Source: Escherichia coli (GTDB taxonomy: Bacteria > Pseudomonadota > Gammaproteobacteria > Enterobacterales > Enterobacteriaceae). Taken from it: 1,195 bases of DNA. The translations under genes and the position numbers were made by a program. The notes beneath the pieces are model-generated. The model ran no database searches. It had not been told where the DNA came from and was given only the letters and a program-made list of their open reading frames with translations. Below are positions 151 to 1,127 of the stretch, piece after piece (the first letter of the stretch is position 1; each line of letters opens with the position of its first letter). The DNA lies in the NCBI RefSeq assembly GCF_003334815.1, contig NZ_QOWO01000104.1; one strand, written 5' to 3'.

Positions 151-1127
151 TGAGATCTCTCCCACTGACGTATCATTTGGTCCACCCGAAACAGGTTGGC
201 CAGGGTGAATAACATCGCCAGTTGGTTATCGTTTTTCAGCAGCCCCTTGTATCTGGCTTTCACGAAGCCGAACTGCCGCTTGATGATGCGAAACGGGTGC
301 TCTACCTTGGCACGGATGCTGGCTTTCATGTATTCGATGTTGATGGCCGTTTTGTTCTTGCGCGGATGCTGCTTCAAGGTTTTTACCTTGCCGGGACGCT
401 CGGCGATCAGCCAGTCCACATCCACCTCGGCCAGCTCCTCGCGCTGTGGCGCTCCTTGGTAGCCGGCATCGGCTGAGACAAATTGCTCCTCTCCATGAAG
501 CAGATTACCCAGCTGATTGAGGTCATGCTCGTTGGCCGCGGTGGTGACTAGGCTGTGGGTCAGGCCACTCTTGGCATCGACACCAATGTGGGCCTTCATG
601 CCAAAGTGCCACTGATTGCCTTTCTTGGTCTGATGCATCTCCGGATCGCGTTGCTGCTCTTTGTTCTTGGTAGAGCTGGGTGCCTCAATGATGGTGGCAT
701 CCACCAAAGTGCCTTGGGTCATCATGACGCCTGCTTCGGCCAGCCAGCGATTGATGGTCTTGAACAATTGACGGGCCAGTTGATGCTGCTCGAGCAGGTG
801 GCGGAAATTCATGATGGTGGTGCGATCCGGCAGGGCGCTATCCAGGGATAATCGGGCAAACAGGCGCATGGAGGCGATTTCGTACAGGGCATCTTCCATG
901 GCACCGTCGCTCAGGTTGTACCAATGCTGCATGCAGTGAATACGCAGCATGGTCTCCAGCGGATAGGGCCGTCGGCCATTGCCCGCCTTGGGATAAAACG
1001 GCTCGATGACAGCGGTCATATTCTGCCATGGCAGAATCTGCTCCATGCGGGAGAGGAAAATCTCTTTTCGGGTCTGACGGCGCTTAGTGCTGAATTCACT
1101 ATCGGCGAAGGTGAGTTGATGGCTCAT
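147..1127 (-). CDS. insH: IS5 family DDE transposase InsH, 326 aa, full-length and apparently intact
   Basis: Seen in sequence: uninterrupted 981-nt ORF (ATG at 1125-1127 on the minus strand, TAA at 147-149), no frameshift or internal stop, filling almost the whole element between the IRs. Recognition: the product ([35 protein letters not shown] ... [23 protein letters not shown] ... QWERSH) is the IS5 InsH transposase as I recall it. Inferred catalytic residues from the IS4/IS5 DDE family signature: D143 (LVDAT, codon 699-701), D220 (SADAGY, codon 468-470), E276 with K283 ([10 protein letters not shown] codon 300-302). Confidence 0.95.

Follow-up and report, generated by a model that had tools for sequence, protein, structure and literature searches.

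The window analysed here, a stretch of 1195 bp, corresponds exactly to one complete insertion sequence, end to end and without flanks. It is very probably an intact ISKpn26 isoform, placed in the IS5 group of the IS5 family and encoding a DDE transposase (D143, D220 and E276) that would act by the two-metal mechanism outlined below. The finding of an intact IS5-type transposase with its DDE triad is correct and already known, as the annotation of Enterobacterales genomes and plasmids already holds thousands of copies that are identical to it or nearly so; as a textbook IS5-family element, it has little import beyond its correct annotation. Meanwhile, citing the catalytic residues of this widespread transposase no longer depends on the motif alone, as an alignment and a structural model now support them.

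The transposase ORF (147-1127, minus strand) starts at an ATG and encodes 326 aa, its translation having no internal stops. A single long transposase ORF in 1195 bp, with no programmed frameshift, is the layout of the IS5 group. Both ends carry imperfect 16-bp terminal inverted repeats of the IS5 type (GGAAGGTGCGAA), positions 1-16 and 1180-1195 being matched at 15 of 16 positions. The first-pass annotation had described an ORF without frameshift or premature stop and the presence of both inverted repeats, and both statements are borne out, with 326 codons read through. The features are collected in Table 1. No sigma-70 consensus promoter was found within the element by a promoter scan of the window, and no Rfam RNA family matched in it.

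Table 1. Features of the 1195-bp element, in window coordinates.
Feature	Position	Strand	Remarks
Terminal inverted repeat, transposase-distal (3') end, GGAAGGTGCGAATAAG	1-16		15/16 vs reverse complement of 1180-1195; same as K-12 IS5 end
Terminal inverted repeat, transposase-proximal (5') end, reverse complement GGAAGGTGCGAACAAG	1180-1195		Same in K-12 IS5, K-12 IS5Y and Klebsiella ISKpn26
Transposase gene, ins5A/insH type, 326 aa + stop	147-1127	-	Identical copies annotated WP_000019440.1, 'IS5-like element ISKpn26 family transposase' (PGAP)
Shine-Dalgarno-like GAGGG, 5 nt 5' of ATG	1133-1137	-	Direct sequence reading; putative function
DUF772 (PF05598) N-terminal domain, residues 51-124	756-977	-	Pfam; helical in AlphaFold model
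DDE_Tnp_1 (PF01609) catalytic domain, residues 138-312	192-716	-	Pfam
D143 codon, first catalytic Asp (LVDAT)	699-701	-	Invariant; strand β1 139-148; PF01609 model position ~10
D220 codon, second catalytic Asp (SADAGY)	468-470	-	Invariant; directly after β4 216-219; aligns with IS903-type D193
E276 codon, catalytic Glu (RAKVEHPF)	300-302	-	Invariant; helix 255-285; aligns with IS903-type E259
K283 codon, K of R-(3)-E-(6)-K	279-281	-	Invariant; aligns with IS903-type K266
R272 codon, R of R-(3)-E-(6)-K	312-314	-	Kept in at least 90% of aligned sequences
IS5-type 3' module	1-183		Identical to K-12 IS5; positions 1-150 ~26% diverged from ISKpn26

Besides the transposase ORF, three antisense ORFs of 84-98 codons are present on the plus strand inside the gene (196-462, 222-476 and 555-851). 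All of them are open in K-12 IS5 as well, where their 12, 11 and 8 nucleotide changes give 3, 10 and 6 amino acid changes, respectively, and the sequence comparison gives no clear sign of independent constraint on them. The literature places the ins5CB operon on the strand opposite the transposase gene, where these ORFs lie.

Regarding the domain models, PF01609 is matched by residues 138-312 (model positions 5-200 of 200, E 8e-35) and PF05598 by residues 51-124 (1-73 of 74, E 6.3e-21). The search against these two families, DDE_Tnp_1 and DUF772, had been proposed by the first-pass annotation, and both are matched essentially end to end, with no partial-domain match. The match to NF033581, the IS5 equivalog of NCBIfam, spans the entire model (1-285 of 285) with 366.8 bits, its curated cut-off being 140 bits, and the IS4, IS982, IS1182 and other IS5 sub-models of NCBIfam all remain under their own cut-offs for the transposase. 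The element belongs to the IS5 family and to its IS5 group, as all the defining features tested are present. By the ISfinder convention, isoforms exceed 95% identity in nucleotides and/or 98% in amino acids; compared to the Klebsiella copy of ISKpn26 in NZ_CP023488.1, taken as a stand-in for the ISfinder reference, the window is 96.7% identical in nucleotides and shares 325 of 326 amino acids, which is the isoform level.

Membership in the IS4 family was also considered and rejected. The Y-(2)-R of the YREK signature is lacking, with Y266 placed five residues before R272; the IS4_1 model (NF033592) gives only 29.9 bits, against a cut-off of 115 bits; and the target duplication of the identical copies has 4 bp, not the ~9-12 bp of the IS4 type. 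That family is defined by the complete Y-(2)-R-(3)-E-(6)-K (YREK) signature together with target duplications of ~9-12 bp (PMC2266710).

A similarity search matched 3,837 E. coli records, the best match being at least 99% identical in 381, and among the matches listed all 25 of 25 records are 100% identical over all 1195 bases. Exact copies are also carried by plasmids of E. coli, Salmonella and Edwardsiella, and the exact 326-aa protein is found on at least 1000 contigs. Five 100% identical copies of 1195 bp, each in a different E. coli replicon and at a site of its own, are flanked by the 4-bp direct repeats CTAA, TTAA, CTAG, TTAG and TTAG, a YTAR-like target-site duplication (the window itself was given without flanks). 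Copies split a fimbrial chaperone gene (fimC/sfmC-type), trhI and a transporter gene, and two further copies are located beside a phosphoethanolamine transferase gene and near ompC, respectively. The empty site of the first copy is also available, as its flanks joined by a single CTAA are found uninterrupted, with 100% identity, in fimC of other strains. Finding the same sequence unchanged at several sites, each freshly duplicated, therefore indicates recent movement of this exact sequence type, and every identical copy inspected has an intact ORF. Comparing the transposase with that of K-12 IS5, dN is 0.011, dS is 0.238 and dN/dS is 0.048, pointing to strong purifying selection on the gene. 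The earlier view that the element is not a decayed relic is in agreement with this ratio, with the wide distribution of the exact protein and with the five duplicated sites.

On the plasmid pEc631_1 (NZ_CP040264.1; L002 2673-4106), an identical copy is located directly upstream of the phosphoethanolamine transferase gene, and the final 23 bases of the element fall within the gene as annotated. This copy might affect the expression of the transferase gene or its annotated start.

For the conservation of the catalytic residues, a search of 1.84 billion cluster representatives provided 22,930 relatives, and an alignment was made of the query and 43 full-length relatives with 36-58% identity (44 sequences). 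Seven of its columns are invariant: R109, D143, G176, D220, E276, K283 and K298. As the protein has 14 aspartates and 22 glutamates, a bare D..D..E pattern would be meaningless; it is the alignment, where D143, D220 and E276 are the sole invariant acidic columns, that shows the choice is not due to chance. Around the glutamate, the R-(3)-E-(6)-K signature is preserved, with E276 and K283 invariant and R272 present in at least 90% of the 44 sequences. The first-pass annotation had assigned the triad by motif to D143 (LVDAT), D220 (SADAGY) and E276, followed by K283 (VEHPFRIIK). All four residues are found at the claimed codons in the translation, and the catalytic residues fall at D143, D220 and E276 without substitution, as seen by the 44-sequence alignment, the comparison with the IS903 type and the structural model. 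The range given for them, 300-701, runs exactly from the E276 codon through the D143 codon, the K283 codon being 19 nt outside. Only the wording 'six residues later' for K283 needs correction, as it lies seven positions on, with six residues between, hence E-(6)-K.

The AlphaFold model, built on the alignment of relatives, is of high confidence, with a pLDDT of 94.3 and a pTM of 0.91. It is composed of a strand bearing D143 (139-148), strands 165-184 and 190-197, a helix (202-209), a strand (216-219) followed by D220, a further strand (238-241) and a long helix (255-285) containing R272, E276 and K283. This follows the order β1-β2-β3-α1-β4-α-β5-α of the DDE/RNase-H-fold superfamily. The protein is thus predicted to adopt an RNase-H fold with the triad at its canonical positions: the first aspartate on β1, the second after β4 and the glutamate on the helix after β5. 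No chain of the PDB has a detectable sequence match to the transposase, and no mutational or structural work on the exact 326-aa protein was found in the literature searched. It could be argued that the motif triad is coincidental and that the true catalytic residues are other acidic ones, such as D161, D184 or D202, since each of these is kept in at least 90% of the sequences and several other acidic columns are nearly invariant; moreover, D143 is paired with D121 of IS903 by Pfam model coordinates and motif similarity, without a confident residue-level alignment. Such a coincidence is extremely improbable, because full invariance among acidic residues is limited to D143, D220 and E276, these occupy the β1, post-β4 and helix places of the fold, and D220 and E276 pair with triad residues of the IS903 type, with R-(3)-E-(6)-K kept.

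With D143, D220 and E276 as the catalytic residues, a mode of action can be proposed from the family membership and the fold. The helical DUF772 region at the N-terminal would presumably recognize the 16-bp terminal inverted repeats, while the three residues of the C-terminal RNase-H-fold domain would hold two Mg2+ ions. These ions would cut the ends of the element and link them, by strand transfer, to a target tetranucleotide of the YTAR type, and repair of the staggered joint would then produce the 4-bp duplication. It has been argued that IS5 moves mainly by copy-and-paste (PMC11677980); the sequence would be compatible with either copy-and-paste or cut-and-paste.

Movement requires the triad, the ORF and the inverted repeats to be intact, but this alone does not suffice. 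The first-pass annotation considered this copy likely active: its structural competence stands, while its activity is presumed and would depend on expression set by the flanks, because the activity of an IS5 copy depends mostly on read-through from an upstream host promoter (PMC11677980). E. coli BW25113 has 11 IS5 copies, and a 2024 study that covered them all describes an extremely weak native promoter for ins5A; transposase (ins5A) mRNA is detectable only from the copy read through by the nmpC promoter, and IS5 transposition scaled with this promoter (PMC11677980). The lack of a sigma-70 consensus in the window agrees with a native promoter of such weakness, and in many contexts there may be next to no expression. 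The copy could be intact and yet silent in practice, producing too little transposase in its own context, and would then be better called competent than active. This is possible but rather unlikely. Two variant IS5 copies, one of them the ISKpn26-type IS5Y, were never donors among 60 new K-12 insertions (PMC11677980); however, IS5Y has a private H254N change, and the identical copies at many sites, with no mutation accumulated, imply that some copies of the exact sequence were recently donors.

Another possibility is that the copy is non-autonomous and that a different IS5-type transposase mobilizes the identical copies in trans through the shared inverted repeats, which are the same in IS5 and ISKpn26; several IS5-like places are present in many E. 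coli genomes. Nevertheless, this is very unlikely, as IS5 transposition was no higher when ins5A was over-expressed at a distant locus, indicating an enzyme that acts mainly in cis (PMC11677980) and arguing that the identical copies moved themselves. In addition, the ORF is intact in all the identical copies inspected and, by its dN/dS of 0.048, is under strong purifying selection. The preferred reading is then that of an intact ISKpn26 isoform, structurally competent and presumably able to move where its flanks provide expression. As for ISKpn26 itself, it was found in mgrB of a colistin-resistant isolate and was absent from the isogenic pre-treatment isolate, and a strain that had been passaged under colistin in vitro carried it in the pga promoter region (PMC12217459); Klebsiella plasmids often carry it, and it is also frequent in capsule loci (PMC8796155, PMC12492035). 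Elements of this type are clinically relevant because insertion into mgrB causes colistin resistance.

Among the nearest relatives, ISKpn26 (NZ_CP023488.1) differs from the window at one base in positions 151-1195, and its transposase is the same except for the last residue, H326 in the window and Q326 in ISKpn26. Its inverted repeats and 5' UTR are as in the window. The ISKpn26 copies have 1196 bp, compared to 1195 bp in the window, and the overall identity to two Klebsiella copies is 96.7% and 95.9%. Plasmids of Klebsiella pneumoniae carry this element, and E. coli K-12 has it in the Rac prophage under the name IS5Y. The divergent 'IS5' copy IS5Y of K-12, located in lomR (NC_000913.3 1427599-1428794; L010 3600-4795), is of the ISKpn26 type, with 1196 bp and 99.75% identity to a Klebsiella plasmid copy. 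It is flanked by CAAG/CAAG, not a YTAR tetranucleotide, and its transposase differs from that of the window only by H254N, K274R and H326Q, the first being private to IS5Y. Meanwhile, the K-12 IS5 (IS5A, insH1/ins5A) agrees with the window in length (1195 bp), in its 16-bp inverted repeats and in gene layout, with an overall nucleotide identity of 94.1%. Its transposase is 98.2% identical (6 of 326 residues changed), with the triad, R272 and K283 unchanged; the changes between both proteins (S14T, V38T, E39A, R249K, R274K and A315V) look conservative and are away from the triad. IS5 generates a 4-bp duplication at C(T/A)A(G/A)-type targets (PMC11677980), as seen around the copies identical to the window.

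Comparing the window with these two relatives along its length, there are 40 differences from the Klebsiella ISKpn26 (NZ_CP023488.1), 39 of them in positions 1-150 and the last at 303, while from K-12 IS5 there are none in 1-183 and 70 in 184-1195. The element is a mosaic, judging from this distribution, in which the 3' non-coding end and the last codon (H326) are of IS5 and all else is of ISKpn26. The crossover falls between 150 and 184, where the transposase gene has its final codons. As a near-identical parent still exists for each half, the simplest view takes the window type as the recombinant. The fuller proposal, a recent natural recombinant joining the transposase module, 5' UTR and proximal end of ISKpn26 to a 3' module of ~150-180 bp from IS5, is put forward tentatively and is unlikely as it stands. 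The swapped 3' module matches the 177-bp bent 'IB' region of IS5, with its A-tracts and IHF site (PMC11677980), a region implicated in the effects of IS5 on neighbouring promoters. If it is true that the swap alters the activation of adjacent genes or the transposition in E. coli, it would represent a modular exchange of regulatory ends between IS isoforms. The IS5/ISKpn26 mosaic also calls for a little care when insertion sequences are typed by BLAST identity.

Beyond the 3' module, the window departs from the Klebsiella ISKpn26 copy only at position 303, a synonymous change in the V275 codon, which adjoins that of E276; K-12 IS5 has the same base there as the Klebsiella copy. In addition, a patch of 30 nt in the 5' UTR (1132-1161, located between the inverted repeat and the start codon) holds 20 of the 70 differences from K-12 IS5. 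From this packing, the promoter and leader of the transposase are of a non-IS5 type, but they are identical to those of ISKpn26.

Beyond the IS5 group, the transposase can be compared with IS903, for which an IS903-type gene was taken from a plasmid and its motif residues were recomputed as D121, D193, E259 and K266. Residues D121, D193 and E259 of IS903 were reportedly studied by mutation by Tavakoli, DeVost and Derbyshire (J Mol Biol 1997). By hhalign, D193 of the IS903 type (SADGAY) corresponds to D220 of the window (SADAGY), E259 to E276 and K266 to K283, in a distant relationship with 23% identity over 110 aligned columns and an hhalign probability of ~38-40%. The HMM and hhalign significance is confined to the part from the second aspartate to the glutamate, with the first aspartate outside the confident alignment; thus, the latter was assigned by Pfam model coordinates. 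A forced longer hhalign alignment (mact 0.01) placed D143 one residue out of register with D121, with near-zero confidence. The PF01609 matches begin 5-6 residues before D143 and D121, at model positions 5 and 4, respectively, and, since they start alike, both aspartates fall at approximately model position 10. PF01609 is matched nearly over its full length in the IS903 type, as in the window, and R-(3)-E-(6)-K is common to both, whereas the N-terminal domain is PF13737 in IS903 and DUF772 in the window. The target duplication of IS903 has 9 bp. Regarding solved structures, the nearest are the Tn5/IS50 transposase, of the IS4 family, and piggyBac, with 7-8% sequence identity to the transposase of the window. 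The Y-(2)-R spacing of IS4 is absent from the window, and the target duplication of Tn5/IS50 has ~9 bp, compared to 4 bp for the window type.
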